NCBI GenBank assembly: GCA_026388095.1
Contig: JAPLKL010000051.1
Span: 73,713 to 137,712 of the forward strand
DNA length: 64,000 nucleotides
DNA from: Elusimicrobiota bacterium
GTDB taxonomy: Bacteria > Elusimicrobiota > Elusimicrobia > UBA1565 > UBA9628
Reading direction: 5' to 3'
The notes under the pieces: generated by a model
The model's database searches: none
Told to the model about the DNA's origin: nothing
Seen by the model: only the letters and a program-made list of their open reading frames with translations
In this document: one piece after another, positions 18,068-50,039 of the stretch
Layout of the letters: each line of letters opens with the position of its first letter
Numbering within the stretch: the first letter of the stretch is position 1
Made by a program: the position numbers and the translations under genes

Positions 18068-18119
18068 TAAGGCCTTTCCATAGGATGTGAGCCTTGGGAG
18101 CCATCAAGAGTTAAGCGCC

Positions 18120-28805: not shown

Positions 28806-29876
28806 ATGTTGAACGATTATCCTCGCAGCAAGAAGCACGGCTTGACCAAACCCATCTCGCTCTCCCCCGGCGATTTTGCCTGCCTGCGCGGCCGCACCGT
28901 CCTAGTCACCGGAGGCACCGGCTCTTTCGGGAAGCGGTTCGTGGAGACCGCGCTCCGGCATAGCCGCTTGCGCAAGCTCATCGTCTTTAGCCGCGATGAG
29001 CTCAAGCAGTCCGAGATGGCGGCCCGCTTCACGGACAAACGGCTGCGCTTCTTCATAGGGGACGTCAGGGACCTCCAGCGCCTGCAGCGCGCCTTCCACG
29101 GCGTGGATTTCGTGGTGCATGCCGCAGCCCTCAAGCAGGTCCCCACCCTGGAATATAATCCGTTTGAAGCGGTTCTCACCAACATCGTGGGGTCTGAAAA
29201 CATCATCAACGCGGCCATCGACCAGAAAGTGCGCCGGGTCGTTGCCCTATCCACCGACAAAGCGGCTAACCCCGTCAACCTCTACGGCGCCACCAAGCTC
29301 TGCTCCGAGAAGCTCTTCATATCCGGCAACTCCTATGCCGGATCCACGGGGACCCTCTTTTCAGTGGTCCGCTACGGCAACGTGGTGGGCAGCCGCGGCA
29401 GCGTCGTCCCGCTGTTTCTCTCGCTGCGCCGGCAAGGAGTCCTGCCCGTCACGGACGCGCGCATGACCCGCTTCTGGATCACGCTGGACCAAGGGATACA
29501 CCTCGTGCTCCGGGCGCTGGCCCGCATGCATGGCGGCGAGGTCTTCGTGCCGAAGATCCCCAGCATGCGCATCATGGACCTCGCCAAGGCCATCGCCCCG
29601 GAGTGCCGTACGCGCGTGGTCGGAGTGCGCCCCGGCGAGAAGATCCACGAGATACTGATTACCGAAGACGAGGCCGCCCGCTCCCTTGACCTGGGTGACA
29701 TATTCGTGGTAAAACCCAACTTCCATTGGTGGGGTCCGGACAACTGGCGGGAAGGCACTGCCGTGCCGGCGGGCTTCCGCTACACCAGCGACGCCAACGA
29801 CCGATGGCTGACCCCGCCGGAGATCCGCGCCCTGACCCTCCCTGCGGATGGGGACCGCGAACCCGCCCCCGCATAA
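28806..29876 (+). CDS. pseB: UDP-N-acetylglucosamine 4,6-dehydratase (inverting; PseB/FlaA1/CapD soluble type)
   Basis: VLVTGGTGSFGK, STDKAANPVNLYGATK, ~350 aa soluble. Confidence 0.75.
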   Translation: MLNDYPRSKKHGLTKPISLSPGDFACLRGRTVLVTGGTGSFGKRFVETALRHSRLRKLIVFSRDELKQSEMAARFTDKRLRFFIGDVRDLQRLQRAFHGVDFVVHAAALKQVPTLEYNPFEAVLTNIVGSENIINAAIDQKVRRVVALSTDKAANPVNLYGATKLCSEKLFISGNSYAGSTGTLFSVVRYGNVVGSRGSVVPLFLSLRRQGVLPVTDARMTRFWITLDQGIHLVLRALARMHGGEVFVPKIPSMRIMDLAKAIAPECRTRVVGVRPGEKIHEILITEDEAARSLDLGDIFVVKPNFHWWGPDNWREGTAVPAGFRYTSDANDRWLTPPEIRALTLPADGDREPAPA

Positions 29877-31207: not shown

Positions 31208-32029
31208 TCAAAACACCGAAAGCGGTCTTGGACTAGTAGCTATGTTCTCAAGCTTGACTCTATCAACGATCTCGGTATTCTCGCGGAAGTTCGGCTCCAT
31301 GCCAGTCAGGTCCCTGTAGGTCATGGAATCCATCGTTTCACTGCCGCCATCCAACGTAACAGTGACAAGATCGATGTTCCGCTTGGCATAATTTATGAAC
31401 TCCCGGCAAAAGTATTTGTTTCTGTCATCAATGGCACCCACCCCTTTTTCATAAAAATGCCCCCCTTTTGACGGGGAATGGGTGTAGTCCTGGCCCACAA
31501 GATAGGCCTTCTTGAACCCCAGATAGATCGCCAAAGAGATCTGGAATGTGAATGAGCCCCGATGCGAGTCTTCACGATCCCTGAATGGGTTCTTCTCTTC
31601 AAAGGGAGGCTTATAGAAACGGCTGACGAAAATGGCGTTCGAAAAGCGAGCCACTGGATAATTTGAAAAATTAATGAAAAAAGTCTTTCTAGGATTCTGA
31701 ATGATGAACTTGCGATATTCGATGGGAAGAATATGCCTGACGATCCGCCGCTTACCGTCTTCCATCCGATAGGGGCAGACCGGCCAAAACCAGAAAGGCT
31801 CGACGAGGGCGCAATACGGGGAATTAAGCGCACTGATCTCCTTATGATAGATCACAAAACTCCCCACGATCGAGGGCCGATCGGCGAACTGGCGCAGATC
31901 CATCCACTTCAAAGAAACGCCATCGCCAAAAATATAGCACTCCTGCCCCGCATGCCTCTGATAAAGCCCATCAAGTTTGGAGAGCTGCCCATGCATGACG
32001 CGAGTGAGCAGTTTCTTAAATAAGTCCAT
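31208..32029 (-). CDS. GT42/Cst-like (sialyltransferase-like, possibly Maf/DUF115-like) nonulosonate transferase candidate
   Basis: CYIFGDGVSLK resembles Cst-II IIAGNGPSLK; LVGQDYTH resembles LSGIDFYQ; low GC. Confidence 0.45.
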   Translation of the reverse strand: MDLFKKLLTRVMHGQLSKLDGLYQRHAGQECYIFGDGVSLKWMDLRQFADRPSIVGSFVIYHKEISALNSPYCALVEPFWFWPVCPYRMEDGKRRIVRHILPIEYRKFIIQNPRKTFFINFSNYPVARFSNAIFVSRFYKPPFEEKNPFRDREDSHRGSFTFQISLAIYLGFKKAYLVGQDYTHSPSKGGHFYEKGVGAIDDRNKYFCREFINYAKRNIDLVTVTLDGGSETMDSMTYRDLTGMEPNFRENTEIVDRVKLENIATSPRPLSVF

Positions 32030-32059: not shown

Positions 32060-33877
32060 TCATGCTTCCGAACTCTTTAAGTCCTTGGCGCCGAATCCGC
32101 TCTTCAAGAAATGCTCATAAGAGCCTTGCGCGATGATCCGCCCACGCTCCAACTGGAAAATCGTATCGCAATTCTGCAGGGTGGAGAACCGGTGCGCGAT
32201 GATCAGGACAGTCAGGTCTTTGTTGAGATTCTCTATGGCATCAATCACCGCCTTCTCGGTGACGCTGTCCAGAGCGCTGGTGGCTTCGTCGAAAATCAGC
32301 ACGGTCGCCTGCTTGTACAGCGCCCTGGCGATGCCGATGCGCTGACGCTGCCCGCCGCTGAGGCGGATGCCGCGTTCGCCTACCAATGCGTCATATCCCC
32401 CGGGCCGGCCTTCGATGAATGCCGAGATCTGCGCTTGAGCGGCGGCATCCCTGACGCGAGCCTTATCCACTTCTTGCGGCGGCACGCCGAAGGCTATGTT
32501 CTCGGCGATGCTGGTGTCAGCCAGGAAGATGCTTTGCGGCACGTGGGCGATGGCGCTCTGCCAGGCCCGCCGGAGCTCTTCGCCTATCAGTTGCCCGTCT
32601 ACCAAAATCCTCCCCTGCGTAGGCTCAAGCAAGGACATCAGCAAGTCCAGAGCAGTGCTCTTGCCGCTGCCGGTGCTGCCGACAAAGCCGACCCGCGCTC
32701 CTTTGCGTATAGTCAGATTGATTCCGTCCAGCACCCAAGGGCCGTCTTCGCCATAACGGAAGCGCACATTATCGAAACTGATGGCTTCATGGAAGTCCAG
32801 CGGCGCAGGCGCCGGCAAATACGCGTCTTTCGGCAGCGGCTGATCGAGCAGATCAAGCACATCGCTCATTGAAGAATGGGCCCCGGCGACTGCAGACCAA
32901 TTGCCGTACAACTGCTGCAATAGCGGGAGCAGGCGCTGCGCCCCAAGCGCCATCGCCGCCATCACCGGCAGGGCTCCCCCCATCCCCCCCGGCCTGCGGC
33001 TCAAGACATAGGACAAGACAGATATCAGCACCATGCCCAAAGCTTCTATGGCGTAGCGGGGGAATTGATTCATGTAGACATTCTCGCCGGTGGCCCGCTG
33101 CAGCTGTTGGATGGCTTTCCGGTAGACATCACAGTAAACTGCCTGGGCGCCGTCCAGAAGCACATCACGAATAGCGCCAAGCCCTTCCTGCAATGCTTTG
33201 ACCACCTGCGTCTGTTCTTGCGCGATGCACCGGCTGTTGCGCGCCAGCCGGTGGCGTATCTGCCAGGCGATGACGCCATACCCCGCGCCGAACATGACGA
33301 CCGCCGCGGTAGCGATCAATGGGTCGATAGCGAACAATGTCAACAGGATTGCCGCGAACAGCACCCCTGAGGTGACTATGCTCACTAAAGACAGCAGCAC
33401 GGACGTAGCGGTCGCGACCTTCTGCGTGATCCCGCTGATGATCTCGCTGCTGTTGCGGGCCACATGCACGCGATAGGGTTGATAAAGCGTCCGCCGGTAG
33501 ACCTCGAGGCTGAGGTCCGCGCCGGTAGCGTTTGCCAGCCGGATACTCACCCATAACACCACCAGACGTAGTCCCGCGGCGAAGACAGCCGCCGCTGCGA
33601 ATGCCACGGTCAGCGGCAGCACCAAGTCCGCCGCAGCAGTGATTCCCAACGCCTTGGCGGCGCCAGAGATCACAGGGGAGTTGAACACTTTTTCCGGCTG
33701 AGTGAGGATGCCTATGAATGGCAGCACCGCCCCGAGACTGACGACCTCGGCGAATGCGTCGGCTAAAGTCAAACCCAGCATCAGCAGGAACTGCGACCGC
33801 CGGCGACTGCTGATGTGTTCAAAAAGACGGACTAGCAACCCGGGGAGGCTTGTCGTGGGGACTTGATAATCCATCAT
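32060..33877 (-). CDS. fused TMD-NBD ABC exporter (MsbA/PglK-like)
   Basis: six N-terminal TM helices; Walker A GSTGSGKST, signature LSGGQRQR, Walker B LIFDEATSALD. Confidence 0.85.
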   Translation of the reverse strand: MMDYQVPTTSLPGLLVRLFEHISSRRRSQFLLMLGLTLADAFAEVVSLGAVLPFIGILTQPEKVFNSPVISGAAKALGITAAADLVLPLTVAFAAAAVFAAGLRLVVLWVSIRLANATGADLSLEVYRRTLYQPYRVHVARNSSEIISGITQKVATATSVLLSLVSIVTSGVLFAAILLTLFAIDPLIATAAVVMFGAGYGVIAWQIRHRLARNSRCIAQEQTQVVKALQEGLGAIRDVLLDGAQAVYCDVYRKAIQQLQRATGENVYMNQFPRYAIEALGMVLISVLSYVLSRRPGGMGGALPVMAAMALGAQRLLPLLQQLYGNWSAVAGAHSSMSDVLDLLDQPLPKDAYLPAPAPLDFHEAISFDNVRFRYGEDGPWVLDGINLTIRKGARVGFVGSTGSGKSTALDLLMSLLEPTQGRILVDGQLIGEELRRAWQSAIAHVPQSIFLADTSIAENIAFGVPPQEVDKARVRDAAAQAQISAFIEGRPGGYDALVGERGIRLSGGQRQRIGIARALYKQATVLIFDEATSALDSVTEKAVIDAIENLNKDLTVLIIAHRFSTLQNCDTIFQLERGRIIAQGSYEHFLKSGFGAKDLKSSEA

Positions 33878-37859: not shown

Positions 37860-38873
<1,014 letters not shown>

Positions 38874-39009: not shown

Positions 39010-40401
39010 CTACTTGCGCTCTTGGAGCTTGGCGGTCGCGGGCTTTTGGAAGGTTACCGTTTTGAAAACCGACTCAAGCTTAAGCCCCTGCCTTTTGGCC
39101 AACGCCTCCAATTTCCTGGTCACAGTTTCAACGAACTCCACATCGGACATGTTGGTCAGGTTCACATGGAAATCCTGCCGGTCGCCGATCCTCGATAGAT
39201 ATTCCACTTCGTCGGCTATCCGGCCGGCCTTCTTCGCCCATTCATAGATTGGGGTCCCAGGCTGAGGCAGCAGGAACCCCACACTGGGATAGATATCGCA
39301 CTCTTCACAGATATCGAGGGTGAGTTGGATGGTCTCCGGGGTTTCCTGGGGATACCCGAAAATGACGCTGGCAAGGGGGACGACATCCCCCTTCCATAGC
39401 ACCTTTGCCTGCTCGATGAACTGGTCGACGCTCATCTTCTTTCCCATCGCAGCCAGGATCTCCGGGCTCCCGTTTTCCAGGGCAAACCCGATATGATTGC
39501 AGCCGGATTCCTTCATGGCTCTTATCAAATCCAAATGCTCTGCACGGAACAACCCCGCCCGGGCGTCCGCCCCCCATTGAATCTTGAAATCCAGGGCCTT
39601 TATCGCCTTCACCCTGGATTCAACACTCTTTAAGGTGGGGAACGTCAATTCATCCCAAAATGCGACGAAGTCACACCGGTACCTGTCGTGCAGTCTTTTG
39701 ATTTCCCCGACAATGGCCGGCTCCGAATACCTTCGGTATTTCTGACCCAGAAAAACGTGGTAGCAGAAGGTGCATTGAAAAGGGCACCCGCGCGCCGAAT
39801 TCAACGGAAAAGACACCACCTTGTCCCCGGAGAAGGAATTGGAATTGACATCGGAGTATCGGGCGTATTTCTCTAGGTTGAATATATCCCAGTCAGGAAA
39901 TCCGATGGTGTCCAAATCCGGGATGATGGCGCGCTTGCCCGTGAAATTGATCTTGCCGTCCTTCTTGAAAGCAATCCCCTTGACCTCAGAGATAGGCATG
40001 CGCCGTTCCAGAGCTCTCAACAAATCCACAATCGTGATATCGGCCTCGCCCAAAACCGCAATATCCACCTCCGTGTTCGTCAACAGCAGCTCCGGGATCG
40101 AGGTCGCTGCGGAATTGCCGCAGATGATGGTCGCATCAGGCCGGATCCGCCTTATCATCCGCGAGATCTGATCGACGTATCTGTACCCGGTGACGATGCA
40201 CCCGAATGCGTACACATCGTAATCCTCTCGACCCAACATGGCCTCCAACCCGTCCACGGAGATGTTGTCGACAGCCATGTCAAACAGGCCGAACTCAAGA
40301 CCTTGCTTTTTGACGGCGGTAAGGACATATCCCAGCCCGACCGGCAAGTGCTGCCTCTTGGCCTCAGGCCTTAACGCGATGTTGATGAAGGCGATCTTCA
40401 T
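39010..40401 (-). CDS. B12-binding radical SAM enzyme (third copy)
   Basis: CPFQCTFC CxxxCxxC, N-terminal cobalamin-binding-like domain; GAGGAA RBS before internal ATG. Confidence 0.8.
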   Translation of the reverse strand: MKIAFINIALRPEAKRQHLPVGLGYVLTAVKKQGLEFGLFDMAVDNISVDGLEAMLGREDYDVYAFGCIVTGYRYVDQISRMIRRIRPDATIICGNSAATSIPELLLTNTEVDIAVLGEADITIVDLLRALERRMPISEVKGIAFKKDGKINFTGKRAIIPDLDTIGFPDWDIFNLEKYARYSDVNSNSFSGDKVVSFPLNSARGCPFQCTFCYHVFLGQKYRRYSEPAIVGEIKRLHDRYRCDFVAFWDELTFPTLKSVESRVKAIKALDFKIQWGADARAGLFRAEHLDLIRAMKESGCNHIGFALENGSPEILAAMGKKMSVDQFIEQAKVLWKGDVVPLASVIFGYPQETPETIQLTLDICEECDIYPSVGFLLPQPGTPIYEWAKKAGRIADEVEYLSRIGDRQDFHVNLTNMSDVEFVETVTRKLEALAKRQGLKLESVFKTVTFQKPATAKLQERK

Positions 40402-40417
40402 TTTGTTCCTCAGGAGA

Positions 40418-41098
40418 TCAGCGCAGCACCCTGATGGCCTGGAAAGCTTCCGCGTAAACAGTCCCGGTCTTGAACCCCCAGGTGGACGCGCAAGCCTTGA
40501 TCCCATCCAAGGATCTCGGATGCGGGGGCTCCCTCAATTCAGCCGAGTATTCCCGCATGGCCGCGAGCTTCTGCTTCATGGTCGCCGCGATGTCGTAGAA
40601 AACCTCGGGACAGAATGTGCAGGGATAAGCCCACTCGGTCGAAGATTGGACCTCAAAGGAATACAGTTCCCTCACCGGTTCGCTCGCAATGGGCCTCGTG
40701 GCGGTAAGGACCGCCTCGTAGGTCACCCGATGGTCGATGTTCAAATCCCCCGCATGGTGCGTGAACAGCAACTGCGGTTCGACCTCGGCCTTGACCTTCT
40801 CTATGGCCTTCACAATGTCCAGCAATGGCACTGTATCGAAACGGTTGTCCGGGAAGTCGAACGAGAAGCCCCTCTTGATGCCCAGGATTCGATTCGCATT
40901 CAAGGTCTGCTTCTTCAAATCTGATATTTCCCGAATCCTCTTGCTTCTGTGCCTGCGTTCATCCCTTGAGGTCGCGCCTTCGCCGAGAATCAGGCAGAAG
41001 GCCTCGTGTCCTTCCTTGACCAAGCGCGCAATCGTCCCCCCGCACCCGAGGACCTGATCATCCGGATGCGCCGCCACGACAAGTATTCTTCTGCTCAC
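40418..41098 (-). CDS. PIG-L/LmbE family deacetylase (second copy)
   Basis: AAHPDDQVLGCGG, HHAGDLNIDH. Confidence 0.8.
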   Translation of the reverse strand: MSRRILVVAAHPDDQVLGCGGTIARLVKEGHEAFCLILGEGATSRDERRHRSKRIREISDLKKQTLNANRILGIKRGFSFDFPDNRFDTVPLLDIVKAIEKVKAEVEPQLLFTHHAGDLNIDHRVTYEAVLTATRPIASEPVRELYSFEVQSSTEWAYPCTFCPEVFYDIAATMKQKLAAMREYSAELREPPHPRSLDGIKACASTWGFKTGTVYAEAFQAIRVLR

Positions 41099-41766
41099 GC
41101 CGCCTCCTTCACTGCCACGAAATTCCAGCTCGCGAACACGTGCTCATCATGAGGGATTTCCTTCCTGACGACCTTGTGCTCCATGACCCGGATCCGAAAA
41201 CCGGAGAAAAGATCCACTATGTGTTTTTTATCGGAAAAATGGACGCAGCCTACGCCGGCGAATTGACCTTCCGCTATCCCGAAGCGTGTGTATTCGTCCT
41301 CCTGATGGGTCCCCTTCCGCGAGTCCGAATGCTGGGTCGAAAACCAATCGATCCCGATGAACTTCCCCCCTGGATTCAAGCGGGCGAGAATCATCTTCAA
41401 GGCGTTCTTGATCCCGGAAGTGGTCGCGTGGGTCAGCGACGAGCGGTCGACGATCAAATCGAACGAGCCCTCGAAAGGAATCTCCGCCGTAAAATCGCCC
41501 GTGACGATCCTGGCCTTGTAGTCGGGGAAGGCCTCCCAAAGTTTCCTGACAATGAATTCGCTACCTTCTATCGCGTAGTAGTCGACACCAAGATGCCGGA
41601 AGAAGGGGATATTGGCGCCCGCTCCACACCCCAACTCCAGGACCTTGAAGGAAGCGCCCTTGGGGGCAGCGTAGCGCCTCACGTAGGAAACCAAGTCCGA
41701 CCAAGGCCAGATGCTCATCTGGGTGTTCTCCCGATACCGGTCGTCCCACTCCTTCGAGAAACCCAT
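41095..41766 (-). CDS. class I SAM-dependent methyltransferase
   Basis: VLELGCGAGAN motif I. Confidence 0.7.
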   Translation of the reverse strand: MGFSKEWDDRYRENTQMSIWPWSDLVSYVRRYAAPKGASFKVLELGCGAGANIPFFRHLGVDYYAIEGSEFIVRKLWEAFPDYKARIVTGDFTAEIPFEGSFDLIVDRSSLTHATTSGIKNALKMILARLNPGGKFIGIDWFSTQHSDSRKGTHQEDEYTRFGIAEGQFAGVGCVHFSDKKHIVDLFSGFRIRVMEHKVVRKEIPHDEHVFASWNFVAVKEAA

Positions 41767-41779
41767 GTCCCCTTTCTCC

Positions 41780-42532
41780 CTATTCGATTACGCAATAACT
41801 TCGGCATGGCTCGAAGGGGAGCTTTTGCAGACGGAACTTATTGATTCCCAAGGTCGCGGCCAGCGCCTCCGTCTCTCCCGGCCACTGAGGGTTATTAAGT
41901 TCGTCGAAAGCGATGATACCGCCTTTGGGGATCATGGGAAGAATCATCTGGAGAGCCTTCTTCGTGGGCTCATGGATGTCGAGGTCAAAATAGGCCAGGG
42001 AGACCACGAGGTGGCGGTTCTCTTTGAGGAACCGAGGCAAGGTCTCGTTGATGTCTCCTTTTACGAAGGAGATCTTCTCGACGTGATTTAGGAAACGGTT
42101 CTTATCGAACAGGGCGACATTCTCCGCCAATTCTTGGTCAAATCCCTTGGTGGTGTAGAAATCGCCCTTCTTCGGGCCGGTCTTCGAGCCGTGAATTGCG
42201 TCTTTCTCGCTGACCTCTGGGAAGCCTTCGAAGGTGTCGAATCCAATGATCCTGCGTTGATAGTTATAGGGCTCCAGAATCGCACTGAGTTGCGCGAACG
42301 AGAAGGCCCCACCTCCTCGGAAGACACCAAATTCCAGGATAGAACCATGAACGTCGAGGACCTTCTGAAAAATCTCGTACTTGTAGAGGAAGGTCGCCAG
42401 AGCCTGGCGGCTCACGAACCGGGGGAAATTGGCCAGCTTGTCCGTGAGAGAACCACTCGCCCTGTTGAAAAAAACATCCATCCCTTTAGCGTAGTCCAGT
42501 TCCTGGCTTGTCCTGTTGATGGTTTTGTTCAT
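41780..42532 (-). CDS. TylF/MycF-family sugar O-methyltransferase
   Basis: GSILEFGVFRGGGAFSFA, IAFDEL, DLDIHE. Confidence 0.65.
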   Translation of the reverse strand: MNKTINRTSQELDYAKGMDVFFNRASGSLTDKLANFPRFVSRQALATFLYKYEIFQKVLDVHGSILEFGVFRGGGAFSFAQLSAILEPYNYQRRIIGFDTFEGFPEVSEKDAIHGSKTGPKKGDFYTTKGFDQELAENVALFDKNRFLNHVEKISFVKGDINETLPRFLKENRHLVVSLAYFDLDIHEPTKKALQMILPMIPKGGIIAFDELNNPQWPGETEALAATLGINKFRLQKLPFEPCRSYCVIE

Positions 42533-43269
42533 TGGCCCTCCCAGATGTCCGGCAATTCGCACTTGGCGATGTTCCCACTCATCAAGATATCAAAACTGCT
42601 GTCGCCGCAATTGAACAACAGGTCGATGATGCTCATATATGGGACGAAGTCGCCGTGCAGTTGAGGATAAACGGGGTGCTTGTAGTCTTGGAAGTAGATC
42701 TTGATGCCCGCAGGGGAGAACTCGTCCTCCTTAGCGTAATCCTTGCCAAGGATCCCGAAGATGTACAGGTCCGCGTGCATCTTTCTGCACATATCTAGGA
42801 CGAGGCCGGATTTATGGCCCTCGAAGTGGAGATCCGAAGCCTTGTGGAAATGGGCCTTGATTCCCAGCTCCTTTAGGAACCACTTCAGCATTGCCTCGTT
42901 TAAATCCGTCAGATATTTCCAGTCGGTCCTATAAACCTCCTCGAAGTAATCAGCGTACCTGCTGAAGTAGGGGGCCTTCTTGTAGTTCAGATGGATCGAC
43001 TTCCAGTGCTTTCTCCGCCAATCTGATGAATTGTCAATCTCAATTTCACGTATGGGCTTCTCTCGATGTCCGGTTGATAGGACCGGGACTGTGAGCCATA
43101 TCGGGCCACTCGCAGTCTTGATCTGGTTCCTGCTGTTCCAGTCCCTTTTCAGGTATTGGACATCATCAAAACTGCAGAATGCATCGCTGAGGGCAATCTT
43201 GTGGAACAACCCGAGCCAAGGCAGATAGACCGGCTGATGGGCAGTAAGAATCATGTCAGTTCTTTCCAA
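42529..43269 (-). CDS. WbqC-family protein (start may be 43254)
   Basis: MILTAHQPVYLPWLGLFHKI N-terminal signature of the WbqC family. Confidence 0.6.
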   Translation of the reverse strand: MERTDMILTAHQPVYLPWLGLFHKIALSDAFCSFDDVQYLKRDWNSRNQIKTASGPIWLTVPVLSTGHREKPIREIEIDNSSDWRRKHWKSIHLNYKKAPYFSRYADYFEEVYRTDWKYLTDLNEAMLKWFLKELGIKAHFHKASDLHFEGHKSGLVLDMCRKMHADLYIFGILGKDYAKEDEFSPAGIKIYFQDYKHPVYPQLHGDFVPYMSIIDLLFNCGDSSFDILMSGNIAKCELPDIWEGQ

Positions 43270-44281
43270 TCGCCGCGATGACTCGCTCGACCGCCTCGTC
43301 CGGCAGTGACGGATAGATTGGCAAAGAGACCGTCATCCTGGTCAGTCCCAGAGCTTTAGGAAGCGAATCAGGCCGGCCAAGCAGTTCCCAGTCATTGATC
43401 GGCACGATGGCTCCGATGCCGACTTCCTCGAGGGATTTTAATGTCCTCTCAGGAGACTCGGTCTTCAGCACCGCTCGGTATCTGGCAGGAGACAGACGCT
43501 GGGGACCCCGAGATGGCACATCCAGCAGTTCCATCCCAGAACGCCTATACTTGTCGAAAATCCGGGCCCTTGCATCCAGAAATCCGGGGAGCCTGCTCAA
43601 CTGCACCCTTCCGATGGCCGCCTGCAAATCCGTCATCTGAAAATTGAACCGAGCCTTGGCATCTCGCCGGCAGTCGAATTGACGGTAGTCCCTGACGGCA
43701 TCGGCCAACGTGCGGGTCTTTGAAACAATCATCCCACCTTGTCCCCCGCTGGTGATGAGCTTGGTCGCATAGAATGAAAATATCCCGATTTCTCCGCGCA
43801 ATCCGACCGGCGCACCGTCCACGGATGCCCCTAAAGCCTGGGCGCAGTCTTCAATGACCGGAATTTTTACAACTGAGACATCCGCTGGCAAACCATACAT
43901 ATGCGCAATGATGGCGATGTCCGCGGTGATGGAGTTGATGGCTTTCACATCGATGTTGGGGGAACCATCGGCGATGTCTGCAATCACCTCATGCCCCCCC
44001 GCCATGGCCGTAGCATGCCGCAACGCCGAGCAGCAATAGGCGGGGAAGAGGATCTTCTTGCCCCGGGCATCCAGAACCCACAACGCCAAGAACAAAGCTG
44101 CGGTGCCGCTCGACAAGGCCACAGCATGCCCGGCCGGCAATCCCAGGAACGCGCAAAACTCATCCTCTAATGCCTCGACTTCCTTGCCCTGTGCCACCCA
44201 ACCGGACTCCAACACTCTGGCGGCAGCGCATGACTCTTCCGTGCCCAGGGTCGGCCTGTTATGAGGAATATCAATCATCAT
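43256..44281 (-). CDS. DegT/DnrJ/EryC1/StrS-family PLP-dependent sugar aminotransferase (PseC-like position)
   Basis: FSFYATKLITSGG with catalytic Lys. Confidence 0.85.
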   Translation of the reverse strand: MMIDIPHNRPTLGTEESCAAARVLESGWVAQGKEVEALEDEFCAFLGLPAGHAVALSSGTAALFLALWVLDARGKKILFPAYCCSALRHATAMAGGHEVIADIADGSPNIDVKAINSITADIAIIAHMYGLPADVSVVKIPVIEDCAQALGASVDGAPVGLRGEIGIFSFYATKLITSGGQGGMIVSKTRTLADAVRDYRQFDCRRDAKARFNFQMTDLQAAIGRVQLSRLPGFLDARARIFDKYRRSGMELLDVPSRGPQRLSPARYRAVLKTESPERTLKSLEEVGIGAIVPINDWELLGRPDSLPKALGLTRMTVSLPIYPSLPDEAVERVIAAIGKN

Positions 44282-44969
44282 GATGACTTGTGGGTTGCCC
44301 GGGATAGAATGTGATTTCTAGGTCGTCCGGAAATTCGGGACGCACTGCCGGCTCCGCACGGAGATTGAATGTGGTCTCGCCGCAGACCAGAAAGGCAGGA
44401 TGTCTTTTTTCGCATGCCCGCAGCAGCTTGATGACATCCCGCACTTTCATATCCGGGCGGAGCCTGTTGTCTGCTGGGGTCCTCCGGGGGCGGTAAGTGC
44501 CTCGGCCCGTCTGTTTCATCCCGGTGATGGGCCTACCGACGAATCGGTCAAGGATCGCCCTCATCAATCTGGCGGTAATCTCGATATCCCAAACTCTCAG
44601 GATGTCCGCTGTATAGCCGTCCTTCATACCGAACTTGGCTTTCACAACGATATCTCCGGCATCGATCTCATCCGATGCCAGCATCCCTGACACGGTGTAA
44701 TGCTCCAGTCCTTCCATGATTGTGTGGAAAATGGGCGCCCAACCCTTCCCGCTCGGAAGATCCGAGCTGTGGAACACGACGACGTTAGTGTTTTTGGTGA
44801 GGTTTGGGATCTTCTTCCGATAGCACCAGGGCACTATCAAGTCATACTCCGCCCGATTCTCCGGTAGAATATCCCCGATCGAAATGACCGCATCGCCCAG
44901 ATACCTCTTCAGCGTATCGCTAAAGGTGTATTCATCGAGCGTATTCAGCAATATAAAGACCTTTCTCAT
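44271..44969 (-). CDS. sugar N-formyltransferase (Fmt-like fold)
   Basis: HSSDLPSGKG matches the HxSLLPxxRG formyltransferase motif; ~232 aa; ATGA overlap with pseI-like gene. Confidence 0.7.
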   Translation of the reverse strand: MRKVFILLNTLDEYTFSDTLKRYLGDAVISIGDILPENRAEYDLIVPWCYRKKIPNLTKNTNVVVFHSSDLPSGKGWAPIFHTIMEGLEHYTVSGMLASDEIDAGDIVVKAKFGMKDGYTADILRVWDIEITARLMRAILDRFVGRPITGMKQTGRGTYRPRRTPADNRLRPDMKVRDVIKLLRACEKRHPAFLVCGETTFNLRAEPAVRPEFPDDLEITFYPGQPTSHHDD

Positions 44970-46012
44970 GCGCCGATGGGGCTCCCTTTTGCATAGACCC
45001 GTCTTGCACGTTTCCCAATCAGTGATTCGAAACGGTTCGGAAGAAGCCCCCTCCCTCCGGGAATCCGCCGCATCCCGATGTTCTCGTCGCAAAATGCCTC
45101 CCCCCCCGAGATATCCTTCAGGGCCACGACAATTCGTTGGAACTCTCGCTTATTGGCCCTTTCAGTTTTCGTGGGCTTGACGATGCCGTCTCCCAGCATC
45201 GAGAAGGAATCTCGGATCGCCTTGACCCACACGGCAAGGCCCTGCTGGTCCGCGGAGAACCAATGGTCGGGCCCGGGCAGGTCGTGGTCCAAGGTAAAAT
45301 GCTTCTCTAGGAAGCAGGCGCCCAGCGCGACGGCCAGGGAGGACGCCAGAGGACCTTGGGTGTGGTCAGAATAACCTATCAGGATCCTCGGGAAAGCCTT
45401 TGCCAGCGTCCGAATCCGTAGCAGGTTGGCGTCGCAAAGAGGCGTCGGATATTGTGATGTGCAAACCAAGAGTATCGTGGGACATCCCCTCATCGCCCCC
45501 ACCGCGTCCAAGGATTGCCGGACCTCCGCCATATCCGACATCCCGCAAGACAGGATGATAGGCAGGCCGGTTTTGGCATAGGTTTTGAGCAGCGGGATAT
45601 TCGTAAAATCGTCCGACCCGACCTTGATGGCTTTCACTCCGAGCCCCAGAAGAACACCGAGGTCAGAAGGATTCTGGGGTGTAGACAAGAACATGATGCC
45701 TGCCGCGTCGCATTCCCTCTTGAGCGCTTTCCATTGACCCACCGAGAATTCGTATCTCTTGAACATCTTTAACATGGACTCGGTGACCTTCCGGCCCTGA
45801 GAACGATAGGTAAACATCTGCCGAGGGTCGGCGACGAACTCCTCGGCCTTGAAGGTCTGGAACTTGATGGCATCGGCGCCCGCCTTCTTTGCTACCCAGA
45901 TCATTCGGAAGGCCTTTGCAAGCTCGCCGTTATGATTGATGCCGGCTTCGGCGACGACAAAGGGCATCCCATAATTGGCGATCATGAACCTGCCAATCTT
46001 GACGCCACTCAT
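44966..46012 (-). CDS. pseI: nonulosonic acid synthase (NeuB/PseI/LegI family)
   Basis: VAEAGINHNG, C-terminal SAF domain; contains a G8 homopolymer on the coding strand (45099-45106). Confidence 0.8.
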   Translation of the reverse strand: MSGVKIGRFMIANYGMPFVVAEAGINHNGELAKAFRMIWVAKKAGADAIKFQTFKAEEFVADPRQMFTYRSQGRKVTESMLKMFKRYEFSVGQWKALKRECDAAGIMFLSTPQNPSDLGVLLGLGVKAIKVGSDDFTNIPLLKTYAKTGLPIILSCGMSDMAEVRQSLDAVGAMRGCPTILLVCTSQYPTPLCDANLLRIRTLAKAFPRILIGYSDHTQGPLASSLAVALGACFLEKHFTLDHDLPGPDHWFSADQQGLAVWVKAIRDSFSMLGDGIVKPTKTERANKREFQRIVVALKDISGGEAFCDENIGMRRIPGGRGLLPNRFESLIGKRARRVYAKGSPIGA

Positions 46013-47025
46013 GACGGCAGCCCCTGGGCGCGCGTCCGCGCGAGAGACAGCAGTCGGTTGACCAACCGACGGGCACCTTCACCGTCCATGGACCCCCTCC
46101 CAATCCGATTTCTTTCCGATCTGCTCGTCTGGCTCTGCAAAAGTTGAAACCCGGTCAAAACGGACTTGGCTAAACCTGCATCTACGCAACGGCCCGCATA
46201 GAAGATGAACCCCGTCTTCTCCCAGCCCCGAACATTGTTGAGTTGGTTATCGGCCTCGGCGATAGCGATGGTCGGAAGCCCCACTCTGGCTAGTTCATAC
46301 AGAGTCTGTCCGCCGGATGAAATCGCCAGATCCGAGACAAGCATGAGTTCCCTCATCCCGTCCGCGTCAGGAGTGTGGTAGAACTCGGTGTTCGGGTCGC
46401 CAGCCCTCTCGATCTCGGATATGTTCTTGAACCACTTGCCGATGACGACTCTCTTGCGGGCATCCGGAGCGTGTTCCGCCAAGCATCCCAGGGTCATGGG
46501 CGTCAGACCGGCCGAATCCGACCCGCCAAAGGTGACCATGATGTTCCGGACCTGCTCCCTGGGGCGCAAGGGCGGGACTTCCCAGAACTCGTGGCGCAGG
46601 GGGAAATACCGGACTCCCAGCAGATACTCGACATCGCGGCGTTGCGGGTAATCCAGTCCCTCCGCTAGGATGGCCCCGTTGACCACCACGCCGGCGGGAT
46701 AGCTGAGACGCAGGCAATCATCAAGATAGACCGGTAGCCGCGCCATTCGCGAGACATCGGTATAGAAACCCGGGCCCGCCAGATAGGAATCAATCAAGGC
46801 GATATCCGCATCCTCAAGCGACTGCGCGAGTTGTTCCGGCCCATGCAGCCAATCCTGCACTCGGAAACCATCATCTTCCGCCATGCGGGACAACTCCTTA
46901 TCCCCATTGACTATCAGTTCCGGAGTCACTCCCTGCTCCGCGAAGGCCGCACGAATCGCCATGCAGCGACTGACATGCCCAAATCCGATGTCTCCTCCAC
47001 CCTCGGTGATGATGAGCACCTTCAT
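46009..47025 (-). CDS. pseG: PseG-like UDP-sugar hydrolase (MurG-like GT-B fold)
   Basis: MKVLIITEGGGDIGFGHVSRC (GxGHxxR), ~338 aa. Confidence 0.65.
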   Translation of the reverse strand: MKVLIITEGGGDIGFGHVSRCMAIRAAFAEQGVTPELIVNGDKELSRMAEDDGFRVQDWLHGPEQLAQSLEDADIALIDSYLAGPGFYTDVSRMARLPVYLDDCLRLSYPAGVVVNGAILAEGLDYPQRRDVEYLLGVRYFPLRHEFWEVPPLRPREQVRNIMVTFGGSDSAGLTPMTLGCLAEHAPDARKRVVIGKWFKNISEIERAGDPNTEFYHTPDADGMRELMLVSDLAISSGGQTLYELARVGLPTIAIAEADNQLNNVRGWEKTGFIFYAGRCVDAGLAKSVLTGFQLLQSQTSRSERNRIGRGSMDGEGARRLVNRLLSLARTRAQGLPS

Positions 47026-47027
47026 CT

Positions 47028-47858
47028 TTAGGGCCGGTGTCGCTTCAGGAGCCGAGCCGCCTCGGGGAAACCATACAGCTTAAGGAATCTTGCCGCCTCG
47101 CGGATTTCATGCCGGACGCTCTTTATGGCAATCTTTTGATAAGTCCCGGCGTTTATCGACGAAAGCCATGGATGCATCCCGAAAAGACGGACTATTTCCC
47201 GGGCGTCAAAGTATCTGTTTTTCGGATAAAGATAGTCATAGACCGCGCAAAGCAGAAGATAATCCTCCTCCGTATCCAGCGTAATCCTTATTCCCGGCCG
47301 GCGGAGCGTCTTGCCGGCCTTGACCACCCCTATTTTGAACCGTTCGGGGTGGCTTTCTTGCATATAGACCGTGACATGCTCTCTTTCACAATCCTTGCGT
47401 GCATTTCGGAAAGCGGTTTCCAACGCAACGGACGAACAAACTTCCACGTCCAACCCATGCGCAAAAAACTGATTATAGGTGTAATCGCATGAACCGCGTA
47501 TGTGCCGACTAATCACCGCGTCGATTATCTGCGGATCGATGCATGGACAATCCGAGGTTATCCGGACTATCACATCGAGCCCGTTTTCTTGGGCGGCCAA
47601 ATGGTATCTGCTCAGAACGTCATCCCGGCTGCCCCTGAAAAACCGCGCCCCTTCCTTTTGGGCTATCTTCACGATGGGATCATCTTCTTTCCCTTCAGTC
47701 GTTGCGATGATAATCGCATCCGCCTTCTTCGACTTCTTTGCCCGGCGAATGACCTGCTCCAATACAGTGATCCCGCTGCCGAACGGAAGGTCTTTGAGGA
47801 CTTTCCCCGGCAGCCTGGTGGAGGAAGTCCTTGCCTGTATGATAATTCCTGTCTTCAT
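47028..47858 (-). CDS. pseF: nonulosonate cytidylyltransferase (SpsF/PseF type)
   Basis: IIQARTSSTRLPGKVLK. Confidence 0.7.
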   Translation of the reverse strand: MKTGIIIQARTSSTRLPGKVLKDLPFGSGITVLEQVIRRAKKSKKADAIIIATTEGKEDDPIVKIAQKEGARFFRGSRDDVLSRYHLAAQENGLDVIVRITSDCPCIDPQIIDAVISRHIRGSCDYTYNQFFAHGLDVEVCSSVALETAFRNARKDCEREHVTVYMQESHPERFKIGVVKAGKTLRRPGIRITLDTEEDYLLLCAVYDYLYPKNRYFDAREIVRLFGMHPWLSSINAGTYQKIAIKSVRHEIREAARFLKLYGFPEAARLLKRHRP

Positions 47859-49036: not shown

Positions 49037-49999
49037 ATGCCTCCGACCATGACCTCCACCCTGCTTTTCAGTTTCGCGGCAGGCCTGGCTGGAGCGTGGT
49101 TCATGGCGCGCTATGGGTTCACACTGCGCTTGGCGGATGCCCCCAATCCGCGGAGCTCACACTCCTCCGCGGTTCCCAAGGGCGGGGGCATCGGCATACT
49201 GCTGGCATTCCTTGTCGTCAGTTGGATGGCACACGCCCCCGCGCGTTTCATGATCCCGGCAGCCGCGATCGCCCTGATCGGCCTTATCGGCGATAGGACG
49301 CATATCGACCCGAAGGTCCGCCTCGCAGCGCAATTCACTGCCGCGCTCTTCTCGTTGAGCGGCGCAGGGTTGAATCCCCTATCCACAGTTCTTGCGGCAA
49401 TCTTTGTGGTCGGGACGGCCAACTTTTTCAACTTCATGGACGGCATCAACGGCATCGCCGGGATAACAGGAATAGTGGGGTTCGGCCTGCTCGGGGCCTT
49501 TGTCCACCAGCGGGCGCCGGGTGACCCCCTGGCTGGGGTCGCTTTCGGATTGGCCGCCGCTTGCGCCGGATTCCTCCCATTCAACTTCCCCCGCGCCAAG
49601 GTATTCATGGGCGACGTCGGCAGCGTCCTGCTCGGGTATGTGTTCGGATATGCCGCCGTACGGTCGAGCGCGAGCCCCGCCGACTTCGCCTGCTTATGCG
49701 CCTTTCTGTTCATGTTCTATGCGGATGAGTTGACGACGATGCTGGTCCGTCTGAGGGCAGGAGAGGATCTGTTCGTGGCTCACCGCCGGCATTACTACCA
49801 ACTCCTGGCCAACGAGCGCGGGATCCCGCACTGGAGGGTCTCGGCAGGATACGGCCTGGTTCAACTCTGTGTGGGCGCCTGCGCCTGGTGGGCGATGCGT
49901 CACGGCATCTGGCACCTTCTGGGGTTCCTCTCTGCTGCCTTTGCCGTTTTCTGCGGATTCAGTTTCGGCCTTCGGCGACGCCTGCCGACAAAAACCTGA
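49037..49999 (+). CDS. polytopic polyprenyl-phosphate HexNAc-1-phosphate transferase (WecA/WbpL/MraY family)
   Basis: NFMDGINGIAG and VFMGDVGS motifs. Confidence 0.8.
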   Translation: MPPTMTSTLLFSFAAGLAGAWFMARYGFTLRLADAPNPRSSHSSAVPKGGGIGILLAFLVVSWMAHAPARFMIPAAAIALIGLIGDRTHIDPKVRLAAQFTAALFSLSGAGLNPLSTVLAAIFVVGTANFFNFMDGINGIAGITGIVGFGLLGAFVHQRAPGDPLAGVAFGLAAACAGFLPFNFPRAKVFMGDVGSVLLGYVFGYAAVRSSASPADFACLCAFLFMFYADELTTMLVRLRAGEDLFVAHRRHYYQLLANERGIPHWRVSAGYGLVQLCVGACAWWAMRHGIWHLLGFLSAAFAVFCGFSFGLRRRLPTKT

Positions 50000-50039
50000 G
50001 ATAGCCGGCCGGCCTCATCCCTTTGATACAATATGCGTC

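Follow-up and report, generated by a model that had tools for sequence, protein, structure and literature searches.

Several described systems bear on nonulosonate (NulO) biosynthesis and on the tailoring of sugar amines. In B. subtilis, an SpsE/F/G-type trio leads to legionaminic acid, UDP-sugars being converted to CMP-Leg by SpsM, C, D, G, E and F (PMC7439481). N-formylated NulOs are already known: Halorubrum has 5-N-formyl-legionaminic acid (PMC6137143), and Ca. Kuenenia is reported to have CMP-NulOs in which one amine is formylated and one is free, with a +14 Da increment, alongside a deacetylase and formyltransferase cluster (SugarBase preprint 2026, 10.64898/2026.04.20.719630). Sugar deacetylation followed by aminoacylation has precedents in VimE/VimA (PMC7468200) and BshB/BshC (PMC5790435); for BshC, no reconstitution of the reaction has been achieved, and which activated substrate it uses is not known (PMC5790435). 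In the E. coli O121 O-antigen, Qui4N is acylated with N-acetylglycine (PMC3210612), and the "wbq" gene names are those of E. coli O121 (PMC7468200).

Here we describe a ten-gene operon inside an Elusimicrobia surface-polysaccharide locus, within a window of 64,000 nt. It very likely encodes a NulO pathway with tailoring and, together with pseB (28806), probably produces a tailored CMP-activated 5,7-diamino-tetradeoxy-nonulosonate of the pseudaminic-acid type for an O-antigen-like polysaccharide. A first-pass annotation had called the combination one that it did not recognise as described, which the known N-formyl NulOs contradict.

Organization of the operon

Ten close-set open reading frames, all present, occupy positions 39010-47858 of the minus strand:

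47028..47858, minus strand, SpsF-type (CTP_transf_3) cytidylyltransferase, predicted CMP-NulO synthetase, the operon's first gene (PF02348, E 1.8e-27)
46009..47025, minus strand, PseG-like (GT28-like) nucleotide-sugar hydrolase (TIGR03590 PseG, 132.6 bits, below the cut-off of 153.55)
44966..46012, minus strand, NeuB-family nonulosonate synthase with SAF domain (PF03102, E 1.4e-74)
44271..44969, minus strand, short (232 aa) Fmt-fold protein (fmt TIGR00460, E 9.7e-11; PDB 1ZGH, E 1.2e-10)
43256..44281, minus strand, short DegT-family PLP aminotransferase (DegT_A, a separate clade; PF01041, E 7.7e-58)
42529..43254, minus strand, WbqC-family protein, predicted to be a ligase of BshC-like type (class I aaRS-like/HUP fold) with a sugar amine as substrate (WbqC, PF08889, E 8.4e-82)
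41780..42532, minus strand, TylF/CalS11-type sugar O-methyltransferase (PF05711, E 1.7e-11; PDB CalS11, E 1.6e-51)
41095..41766, minus strand, class I SAM methyltransferase, MT2 (Methyltransf_25/23/11)
40418..41098, minus strand, PIG-L/LmbE-family de-N-acetylase (PF02585, E 3.3e-26; AHPDD motif)
39010..40401, minus strand, B12-binding radical SAM enzyme (class B), the last tightly linked gene (PF02310 and PF04055)

Pfam and NCBIfam profile searches matched every reading frame to the family named for it in the first-pass annotation, as a single minus-strand operon. Of its nine junctions, four show the 4-nt start/stop overlap also attributed to it (ATGA/GTGA, at PseG/NeuB, NeuB/Fmt, WbqC/TylF and MT2/PIG-L, the NeuB gene having ATGA on either side) and five do not: Fmt/DegT is an overlap of 8-11 nt, and junctions without overlap have gaps of 1-16 nt. 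The Fmt-like protein starts at ATG 44969 (232 aa), TTG 45092 not being used, and WbqC is 241 aa long. The most likely starts are ATG 42532 for the TylF-like gene (250 aa), which overlaps the wbqC stop codon, and ATG 40401 for the radical SAM gene (463 aa; GAGG upstream). Both gene content and gene order recur on a 12.5-kb metagenome contig (L003), where amino-acid identity is 56-81%, indicating that the arrangement is not due to chance. The WbqC and Fmt-like proteins match MAG proteins at NCBI, encoded on a 151-kb contig, with 100% identity.

Backbone and flanking genes

Five further genes in the window bear on the pathway:

28806..29876, plus strand, PseB, inverting UDP-GlcNAc 4,6-dehydratase, predicted first step (TIGR03589, 492.6 bits, cut-off 407.75)
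31208..32029, minus strand, 273-aa protein with a sialyltransferase/Maf-like predicted fold, candidate NulO transferase
32060..33877, minus strand, ABC exporter in which transmembrane and ATPase domains are fused, lying upstream of the 31208 transferase and a Wzy_C gene (PF00005 and PF00664)
37860..38849, minus strand, SDR resembling GDP-L-fucose synthase, pathway membership uncertain (PF01370; NF047922, 307 bits, cut-off 500)
49869-51905, WbpM/PglF-like retaining dehydratase, 2 kb from the operon

The pseB assignment made earlier holds, as the protein is a true PseB equivalog. Its orthologue opens the operon in L003; here it lies 10 kb from the operon on the opposite strand, which counts against the preferred explanation. 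Equivalog cut-offs are missed for PseF, PseI and PseC alike. The cytidylyltransferase scored 24.8 bits against PseF (TIGR03584, cut-off 205.7), matched the cytidylyltransferase 6oew in the PDB (E 9e-38) and is 74% identical to its L003 orthologue. The synthase is better described as NeuB/NnaB than as PseI (NeuB_NnaB 328.8 bits, PseI 234.1 bits, each under its own cut-off). The PseG-like protein has a weak Glyco_tran_28_C match, is 56% identical to its L003 counterpart and forms a subtype apart from the true PseG of locus L077 (313 bits). By sequence, the three proteins are assigned to the SpsF/SpsG/SpsE type. The preference of the synthase for NeuB/NnaB, the sub-cut-off PseG score and the legionaminic acid product of such a trio in B. 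subtilis count against a firm assignment of pseudaminic-type stereochemistry.

The 31208 protein, previously proposed as a GT42/Cst-like transferase, had no HMM match; a local resemblance to CstII (pairwise E 2e-4) and its predicted fold lend that proposal partial support. Orthologues of the ABC exporter (540-675 bits) lie just upstream of pseB in five loci (L005, L072, L073, L079, L082). The SDR gene sits 160 nt downstream of the radical SAM gene, and SDRs of similar kind occur in 24% of related loci.

Distribution of the cassette

When 185,579 species genomes were scanned, 255 WbqC relatives emerged, and the best 80 of these loci span more than 25 phylum-level lineages. The common order among these 80 is NeuB, hexapeptide or formyl transferase, short DegT, WbqC, TylF (optional), methyltransferase (optional) and PIG-L. 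Among 54 well-flanked WbqC loci (neighbours within 8 kb of WbqC for PIG-L and NeuB), PIG-L was present in 93%, NeuB in 85%, PseG-like in 83%, short DegT in 76%, TylF in 44%, MT2 in 30% and the radical SAM enzyme in 22%; in 30 of the 54 the short DegT gene immediately precedes wbqC. The tailoring set, called unusually rich in the first pass, is thus not particular to this genome but part of a cassette common to hundreds of genomes.

Aminotransferase and acyltransferase slot

DegT_A has the catalytic lysine motif SFYATK, and is 59-71% identical to its L003 and L004 counterparts and only 23-26% to PseC-like proteins; it scored 131.5 bits against PseC (cut-off 423.5). NCBIfam profiles found no PseC equivalog within the window. 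A PseC-like enzyme coexists with DegT_A in 28 of 51 related loci, suggesting that DegT_A may have a role different from C4 amination.

The Fmt-fold protein lies where an N-acyltransferase was expected, as the first-pass annotation had it: among related loci, a hexapeptide acyltransferase fills the slot in 29, a short Fmt-like protein in 5 and a canonical formyltransferase with intact N-x-H...D in 5 (L016, L032, L048, L070, L071), and no locus has both the L001-type hexapeptide enzyme and the short Fmt-like protein. The hexapeptide acyltransferase is fused to DegT_A in four loci (L053, L055, L061, L066), which ties the two functionally. The window's protein scored 20.6 bits against Formyl_trans_N in Pfam (gathering cut-off 26.1) and E about 1e-4 against the sugar N-formyltransferases 6nbp and 6v33; its nearest PDB relatives carry Met-tRNA formyltransferase annotation. 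Across the short family His67, Asp103 and a FHSSDLPxGKGWAPI motif are conserved, with V, I or L in place of the catalytic Asn of N-x-H. The lost Asn and the sub-threshold Pfam score weaken the formyl assignment. It is probably an N-formyl (or other N-acyl) transferase, and whether formyl is the group on the C4-derived amine is evenly balanced. For the N-formylated product proposed earlier, then, fold and slot speak in favour and the replaced Asn against.

Methyltransferases and radical SAM enzyme

CalS11, to which the TylF-like protein is close, is a TDP-rhamnose 3'-O-methyltransferase, and because of this match O-methylation at the nucleotide-sugar level is a well-supported prediction. MT2, found in 14 of the 17 loci with the DegT_A nearest to the window's, has weak best named matches (a daptide methyltransferase, E 2.4e-5; the cypemycin N-terminal methyltransferase 7wzg, E 3e-4) and is possibly an amine N-methyltransferase. 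The radical SAM enzyme carries its cluster motif CxxxCxxC (CPFQCTFC) at residues 206-213 and reached no named NCBIfam family (best BchE, 129 bits, cut-off 481). Relatives above 240 bits adjoin the cassette in seven loci (L003, L014, L016, L024, L038, L050, L053); in L014 and L050 they follow PIG-L immediately. It is an accessory, not a core, gene, which makes C-methylation just one possibility; of the O- or C-methylated product suggested in the first pass, the O-methyl part is the better supported.

WbqC and PIG-L

No other protein of the cassette is as conserved as WbqC (66-80% identity among the best 120 database matches, 51-75% across the best 80 genome loci). Its predicted fold is nearest to the bacillithiol enzyme BshC and class I aminoacyl-tRNA synthetases, and would be of the adenylate-forming or aminoacyl-transfer kind. 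At the sequence level WbqC and BshC show no link, which speaks against the comparison: an hmmsearch of the WbqC profile against the PDB found nothing, and hhalign gave a probability of 0.14 for WbqC and BshC. The top NCBIfam matches of PIG-L are BshB1, BshB2, Mca and MshB. PIG-L and WbqC resemble the bacillithiol pair BshB/BshC, which removes an acetyl group and attaches an amino acid, and a Bathyarchaeota locus that has WbqC, PIG-L, a CE4 deacetylase and two GT4 genes, without NeuB, parallels BshA/BshB/BshC. That PIG-L and WbqC act as a deacetylase-ligase pair is a tentative reading that we place slightly short of even. The earlier annotation proposed no role for either protein.

Proposed pathway and alternative explanations

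Family assignments suggest the backbone route. UDP-GlcNAc would be dehydrated by PseB, aminated at C4 by the short DegT and N-acylated on that amine, most likely with formyl, by the Fmt-fold enzyme standing in for PseH; the PseG-like enzyme would then remove UDP, the NeuB-family synthase condense the sugar with PEP and the SpsF-type enzyme add CMP. For tailoring, fold and gene neighbourhood suggest that PIG-L (BshB/MshB-like) would remove the GlcNAc-derived acetyl group and expose the amine destined as N5, and that WbqC would join a free sugar amine to an activated carboxylate, which is probably that of an amino acid. The CalS11-like enzyme would place an O-methyl group on the nucleotide sugar and MT2 a further methyl, possibly on an amine, while the B12-radical SAM enzyme, a lineage-specific extra, may C-methylate. 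Transfer of the product would fall to the sialyltransferase-fold protein (31208) and its handling to the neighbouring ABC exporter and Wzy_C proteins.

A hexose route, to a modified 4-amino-4,6-dideoxyhexose of the perosamine or Qui4N-formyl type, is highly improbable. Hexose pathways also use WbqC, DegT, Fmt-like and TylF-like enzymes and the CalS11 substrate is TDP-rhamnose, but NeuB, the PseG-like hydrolase and the CMP-type cytidylyltransferase are translationally coupled to the operon genes, NeuB accompanies WbqC in most well-flanked loci, and RmlA, RmlB and GDP-mannose pathway genes are absent from the operon. With the true PseB and the sialyltransferase-fold protein also present, the earlier choice of a NulO over a hexose pathway is borne out. 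Legionaminic-type or other non-Pse stereochemistry would keep the same enzymology, with the precursor made by the WbpM/PglF-like dehydratase and the SpsG/SpsE/SpsF-like trio working as in B. subtilis. The NeuB_NnaB score, the SpsF-type cytidylyltransferase, the sub-cut-off PseG-like hydrolase and the nearby WbpM-like gene fit this, yet it appears unlikely given a true PseB equivalog in the locus, pseB as the first gene of the operon in the closest relative, and true PseB, PseC and PseG equivalogs in most related loci, L077 for example.

Two further explanations assign WbqC differently. As in Ca. Kuenenia, the Fmt-fold enzyme could formylate one amine, PIG-L leave the other free or available for N-methylation by MT2, and the TylF-like enzyme O-methylate, WbqC being no ligase and having another nucleotide-dependent or a non-catalytic role; this is the reading closest to the first-pass annotation. 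The Kuenenia CMP-NulOs beside a deacetylase and formyltransferase cluster, the strong CalS11 match and the weak amine-methyltransferase matches of MT2 agree with it. We nevertheless find it doubtful, as the WbqC fold points to adenylate formation or aminoacyl transfer, and a protein so conserved, and nearly always accompanied by PIG-L, would be expected to have an indispensable catalytic function. Alternatively, as in O121, the short DegT would make the C4 amine, WbqC would aminoacylate it (with glycine or alanine, for instance), and the Fmt-fold enzyme would cap the aminoacyl alpha-amine like a Met-tRNA formyltransferase, the hexapeptide enzyme acetylating that amine in other loci and PIG-L separately freeing N5 for methylation. 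This is consistent with the nearly invariant acyltransferase-DegT-WbqC order and the frequent adjacency of DegT to wbqC, the four acyltransferase-DegT fusions, the PDB relatives of the Fmt-like protein, the N-acetylglycyl group on Qui4N in E. coli O121, to which the wbq genes belong, and the deacetylase, ligase and N-capping logic of MshB, MshC and MshD in mycothiol synthesis. It too seems improbable: E. coli O121 wbqC is only presumably a PF08889 member adjoining vioA, the PseH-equivalent step would be left unfilled only if an aminoacylated sugar is not accepted by PseG and NeuB, and the coexisting PseC is left unexplained. In the pseudaminic-type pathway that we prefer, as across the cassette, WbqC and PIG-L are the constant core, and this deacetylase and WbqC core is the unstudied part of a widespread cassette.

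Gene content of the operon and its surroundings

Ten minus-strand open reading frames fill 39010-47858, and all ten family names proposed by the first-pass annotation agree with Pfam and NCBIfam. In the direction of transcription the operon comprises:

39010-47858 (whole operon), minus strand
CTP_transf_3 cytidylyltransferase, minus strand
PseG-like hydrolase, minus strand
NeuB synthase, minus strand
44271-44969, minus strand, short Fmt-fold (Fmt-like) protein, 232 aa
43256-44281, minus strand, short DegT aminotransferase
42529-43254, minus strand, WbqC
TylF-like methyltransferase, minus strand
41095-41766, minus strand, class I SAM methyltransferase (MT2)
40418-41098, minus strand, PIG-L deacetylase
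39010-40401, minus strand, B12-binding radical SAM enzyme (rSAM)

The genes had been described as joined by 4-nt start/stop overlaps, which holds for four junctions (ATGA or GTGA); one other junction overlaps by 8-11 nt and four have gaps of 1-16 nt, figures that presuppose corrected starts for the Fmt-like (44969), TylF-like (42532) and rSAM (40401) genes. The closest relative (L-numbers here and below denote related loci) is a 12.5-kb metagenome contig, L003, in which gene set and order match the operon at 56-81% identity, with pseB in first position and a convergent rSAM gene. Because L003 repeats both the genes and their order, the operon is real and not a chance product. A promoter and terminator scan of 35.5-48.3 kb returned fewer sites than shuffled controls and was uninformative.

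The source genome is GC-rich: GC content is 65-73% at both window ends, with a lower-GC region (48-61%) from about 28 to 54 kb. The entire window is a surface-polysaccharide region, containing five Wzy_C-family genes, a Wzx-type flippase and many GT2 and GT4 glycosyltransferase genes, together with a WbpL-like gene, a WbpM-like gene, a polyprenyl glycosylphosphotransferase, several SDR epimerase/dehydratase genes and an ABC exporter. The flippase and four of the five Wzy_C genes are located as follows:

12336-13529, Wzy_C (O-antigen ligase/polymerase family)
13516-14742, Wzy_C
14733-16007, Wzx-type flippase
29929-31152, Wzy_C
51902-53224, Wzy_C

The Wzy_C genes and the flippase suggest that several assembly lines for glycans are encoded next to one another. 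An AbiEii/AbiEi type IV toxin-antitoxin pair sits amid the polysaccharide genes (5708-7293, minus strand), and a single 756-aa ORF (53221-55491, plus strand) carries two GT4 modules. The ABC exporter (32060-33877, minus strand) joins transmembrane and ATPase domains in one protein and is possibly a flippase of the PglK-like type; it seems to travel with the pathway, since L005, L072, L073, L079 and L082, five related loci with the cassette, have close orthologues (540-675 bits) directly upstream of pseB. ORF 31208-32029 (273 aa), previously called a GT42/Cst-like transferase, had no Pfam, NCBIfam or PDB-sequence match; pairwise BLASTP aligned it to CstII at 31% identity over 98 aa (E 2e-4), and modelling predicts a sialyltransferase-type fold.

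Backbone pathway

Profile matches assign the operon to a nonulosonate (NulO) pathway, with an unambiguous NeuB (E 1.4e-74), and a hexose-pathway reading was rejected. The pseudaminic (Pse) labels given to individual genes fared less evenly. A PseB equivalog is present 10 kb from the operon on the opposite strand (28806-29876; TIGR03589, 492.6 bits vs cut-off 407.75), and the PseG-like hydrolase falls just under its equivalog cut-off (TIGR03590, 132.6 bits vs 153.55; E 2e-38), whereas the remaining labels fail at equivalog level: the synthase scores 234.1 bits on PseI (cut-off 340.25) and higher, 328.8 bits, on NeuB_NnaB; the cytidylyltransferase scores 24.8 bits on PseF (cut-off 205.7), is of the SpsF type and has 6oew as its nearest solved relative; and the operon DegT scores 131.5 bits on PseC (cut-off 423.5). 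On the same PseC model a second DegT in the window (58350-59462) reaches 240.8 bits and a true PseC, in L077, 571 bits. Searched against Pfam and NCBIfam, the ten operon proteins gave no match to GNAT or PseH models, and the Fmt-fold protein takes the acyltransferase slot.

The locus resembles the canonical PseB/C/H/G/I/F pathway of Campylobacter and Helicobacter in its true PseB, in a hydrolase that is PseG-like, in a synthase of the NeuB family and in CMP activation, but differs in its non-equivalog synthase and cytidylyltransferase, in the five or six extra tailoring genes of the operon and in lacking a GNAT-type PseH, in place of which there is an Fmt-fold protein here and a hexapeptide enzyme in other loci. 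Related loci such as L077 hold a PseC and a PseG that are true equivalogs, and also the 'Pse-associated methylase' TIGR03587. In two betaproteobacterial cassettes (L077 5718-6437 and L075 5805-6434) the gene for this methylase (274-298 bits) separates those for the cytidylyltransferase and PseG; a gene of its type is absent from the window. The sps pathway of Bacillus subtilis shares with the operon the SpsF, SpsG and SpsE enzyme types and UDP-linked precursors, and this trio produces legionaminic acid (PMC7439481). Unlike the operon, the sps pathway has a retaining dehydratase (SpsM) for its first step and employs an acetyltransferase (SpsD), and the six-enzyme route to CMP-legionaminic acid is described without a WbqC, PIG-L, methyltransferase or rSAM step. 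Given that the Pse labels fail and that an SpsF/SpsG/SpsE-type trio makes legionaminic acid, the description 'pseudaminic-like' rests mainly on PseB.

Distribution of the cassette

A scan with a WbqC alignment against one genome per species recovered 255 relatives, the best 80 of which span more than 25 phylum-level lineages and include candidate-phyla-radiation bacteria, Nitrosopumilaceae, Bathyarchaeia and three cultured bacteria. Every ORF of the related loci was scored against the proteins of the window, revealing a recurring order of PseB, PseC, CTP-transferase (optional), PseG, NeuB, hexapeptide acyltransferase or Fmt, short DegT and WbqC, followed 3' of WbqC by TylF (optional), MT2 (optional) and PIG-L. 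Gene frequencies were counted within 8 kb of WbqC in the 54 loci with enough flanking sequence.

Table. Occurrence of operon gene families within 8 kb of WbqC (54 loci)
PIG-L: 93% (50/54)
NeuB: 85%
PseG-like: 83%
Short DegT: 76% (immediately upstream of wbqC in 30/54)
TylF: 44%
MT2: 30%
rSAM: 22%
Short Fmt-like: 9%

The gene set is therefore a widespread cassette, common in uncultured lineages, and not a local curiosity; having been recovered from so many lineages, it does not bear out the earlier description of the tailoring set as unusually rich. In six loci (L026, L027, L030, L033, L057 and L085) the cassette contains an additional NeuB-family gene, a divergent one that scores about 120-160 bits against the NeuB of the window and is often placed between wbqC and the PIG-L gene.

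The short DegT aminotransferase

The short DegT proteins form their own clade, with 59-71% identity between the window and L003 or L004 and 23-26% to PseC-like proteins. Calling the operon enzyme simply 'PseC' was rejected as a family assignment on this identity and on the PseC score (131.5 vs 423.5 bits). A PseC-like enzyme accompanies the short DegT in 28 of 51 loci; among the 17 whose type is nearest to that of the window, it does so in 14. Since the window and L003 hold only the short DegT, it is the likeliest C4 aminotransferase in the operon. In four loci from Thermodesulfovibrionales and Fibrobacteria genomes a single ORF encodes the short DegT fused to the hexapeptide acyltransferase; its end lies near 10004 in three of them (L053, L055 and L061) and at 2023 in the fourth (L066).

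N-acylation and the formyl group

The proposal that formyl replaces acetyl at the N-acylation step gains support from the occupants of the slot after NeuB, which is filled by a small hexapeptide acyltransferase in 29 loci and by a short Fmt-like protein in five, no locus having both. A full-length canonical formyltransferase with an intact N-x-H...D motif occupies the same slot in L016, L032, L048, L070 and L071. Less favourable is the short family itself (length about 225 aa): the operon protein scores 20.6 bits on Formyl_trans_N, under the gathering score of 26.1, and across 30 aligned members His67 and Asp103 are invariant while none has the catalytic Asn, 28 having V, I or L at its position and the other two M or H. 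The same protein matches TIGR00460 (E 9.7e-11) and PDB entries (E 1e-10 to 4e-4). With the catalytic Asn replaced and the Pfam score below threshold, formyl transfer by the short Fmt-like protein is plausible, not secure.

N-formyl groups on nonulosonates have precedents. Pse5Ac7Fo occurs in Pseudomonas aeruginosa O7/O8, which along with Halorubrum sp. PV6 shares an N-formyl group with the predicted product, but the clusters of both lack the WbqC/PIG-L/short-DegT cassette. The Halorubrum sugar is 5-N-formyl-legionaminic acid, and a predicted formyltransferase gene lies inside its cluster (PMC6137143). A further parallel is Ca. Kuenenia stuttgartiensis, whose CMP-NulOs carry one formylated amine, one free amine and a +14 Da increment (SugarBase preprint, 10.64898/2026.04.20.719630); as the modified sugars were detected as CMP-sugars, editing occurs at the nucleotide-sugar level. 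Like the operon with its PIG-L gene and putative formyltransferase gene, the Kuenenia cluster has deacetylase and formyltransferase genes (10.64898/2026.04.20.719630); by its description it is LegB/LegC/LegG-type, and no WbqC, short DegT, CalS11-like or B12-rSAM gene is reported from it. None of the 63 relatives found for the short Fmt-like protein of the window bears the name Kuenenia. The first-pass annotation had not recognised an N-formylated, methylated CMP-nonulosonate as described, yet N-formyl, free-amine and methylated CMP-nonulosonates have been observed (10.64898/2026.04.20.719630). The predicted chemistry thus has direct precedent, and formyl-plus-methyl is not new in itself.

Methyltransferases and the radical SAM enzyme

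Residues 30-246 of the TylF-like protein match CalS11, a TDP-rhamnose 3'-O-methyltransferase (4gf5, 3tos; E 1.6e-51), making O-methylation of a nucleotide sugar the best-supported of the predicted tailoring steps. MT2 shows weak similarity only, to N-terminal amine methyltransferases. The rSAM protein has class B architecture (PF02310, E 2.4e-13; PF04055, E 1.3e-14; CPFQCTFC, that is CxxxCxxC) and scores below the cut-off of every named NCBIfam subfamily. Its relatives adjoin the cassette in seven of about 80 loci, and in two of these they follow PIG-L immediately, the position seen in the window; rSAM is an accessory gene, and C-methylation by its product is possible. A literature search for B12-radical SAM enzymes in NulO pathways returned none. 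Three distinct B12-binding radical SAM genes lie in the polysaccharide region (18087-19595, plus strand; 21652-23874, minus strand; 39010-40401, minus strand), the first two at 23-27% identity to the operon enzyme.

WbqC and PIG-L as a candidate deacetylation-ligation pair

The WbqC protein covers profile positions 1-216 of 218 of PF08889 (274.7 bits, E 8.4e-82). The family is very large, a search of 1.84 billion representatives at E ≤ 1e-3 giving 16,244 clusters at 50% identity, and our literature search found no functional study of it. The AF2 model (pLDDT 91.6, pTM 0.89) predicts a class I aaRS-like Rossmann (HUP) fold, and its only notable Foldseek match was BshC (E 6e-3, probability 0.98). 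At the sequence level the WbqC profile had no match in the PDB, hhalign gave a probability of 0.14 against a BshC sequence of which a 61-residue stretch is identical to 4wbd, and likeness by eye is confined to a short N-terminal motif. The best named matches of the PIG-L protein are BshB1, BshB2, Mca and MshB. In a Bathyarchaeota locus (L083, 5564-11663) WbqC occurs without NeuB; its neighbours there are PIG-L, a CE4 deacetylase and a pair of GT4 glycosyltransferases, an arrangement that resembles BshA/BshB/BshC. A second PIG-L gene in the window (3813-4448, plus strand; 32% identical to that of the operon) adjoins an SDR epimerase and an FkbH-like gene and has no WbqC beside it.

The cluster from which the family apparently takes its name offers a second comparison. 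The E. coli O121 wbq cluster makes an amino sugar with an N-capped aminoacyl group; it follows a dTDP-hexose pathway rather than a NulO pathway and is not known to include a PIG-L gene. The 'wbq' gene names belong to this serotype (PMC7468200), in whose O-antigen N-acetylglycine acylates Qui4N (PMC3210612). Making this sugar takes three enzymes, an aminotransferase, an amino-acid ligase and an N-capping acyltransferase, and the cassette conserves this trio. By analogy we infer a link between WbqC and glycine addition in O121; searches found no paper testing that link and no literature on Qui4N-glycyl gene assignments, and distant-mode blastn with a low-GC wbqC as query was negative for all complete E. 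coli genomes.

On the basis of the BshC-like fold, the BshB-like PIG-L, the L083 pattern and the O121 product, we propose that PIG-L would free a sugar amine and that WbqC would attach an activated carboxylate, probably an amino acid, to a sugar amine. Bacillithiol and mycothiol synthesis (BshB/BshC; MshB/MshC/MshD) follow this logic: a PIG-L/LmbE enzyme frees a sugar amine and a class I aaRS-like-fold enzyme adds an amino acid, after which the new alpha-amine can be capped, by acetyl in mycothiol or methyl in N-methyl-bacillithiol (PMC6282198). The parallel has its limits, as WbqC (241 aa) lacks the N-terminal and coiled-coil parts of BshC and has no detectable sequence homology to it, and its predicted substrate is a nucleotide sugar or NulO rather than GlcN-malate. 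The BshC reaction itself has never been reconstituted (PMC5790435). Two orders of reaction can be envisaged. Either the acyltransferase would cap the DegT-made amine and WbqC would re-acylate the amine freed by PIG-L, or WbqC would aminoacylate the amine made by DegT, leaving the new alpha-amine to be capped by the Fmt or hexapeptide enzyme.

Equating WbqC with PtmG (Cj1324, acetamidino-forming) was considered and rejected; PtmG belongs to the PseA/WbpG PP-loop type, and the papers found call it an amidotransferase, none linking it to WbqC. The only WbqC fusions found were tandem WbqC-WbqC proteins and unassignable tails; two of the database tandem proteins (P0184 and P0283) are about 490 aa long.

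Implications

The operon was correctly read at family level and is a variant rather than categorically new, its formyl, free-amine and methyl chemistry having been seen before. We consider it possible rather than probable that WbqC is a BshC-like ligase that, with PIG-L, swaps the GlcNAc-derived acetyl for an amino-acid or other acyl group, and that the operon product is an undescribed pseudaminic-type sugar. That sugar may be N-formylated or bear an N-formyl-aminoacyl group; its second amine may be edited and possibly N-methylated, and it may also have an O-methyl group and a carbon added by rSAM. If true, this would cover nonulosonic acids and other amino sugars, and carbon addition by rSAM would offer one possible origin for the C10 ulosonic acids that mass spectrometry has shown in Magnetospirillum and that are so far unexplained.

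Surface glycans of bacteria and archaea are capped by nonulosonic acids, whose N-substituents determine surface charge and influence phage and immune recognition. The focus shifts from one 'rich' operon to a cassette in hundreds of bacterial and archaeal species, the interest of which lies in an uncharacterised WbqC, PIG-L and short DegT core, with WbqC and PIG-L as its constant part, and in a testable mechanism. The fold link to BshB/BshC provides a concrete and cheap deacetylate-then-ligate hypothesis for a very large protein family, and work on WbqC may in turn help to explain BshC, whose reaction has resisted reconstitution.
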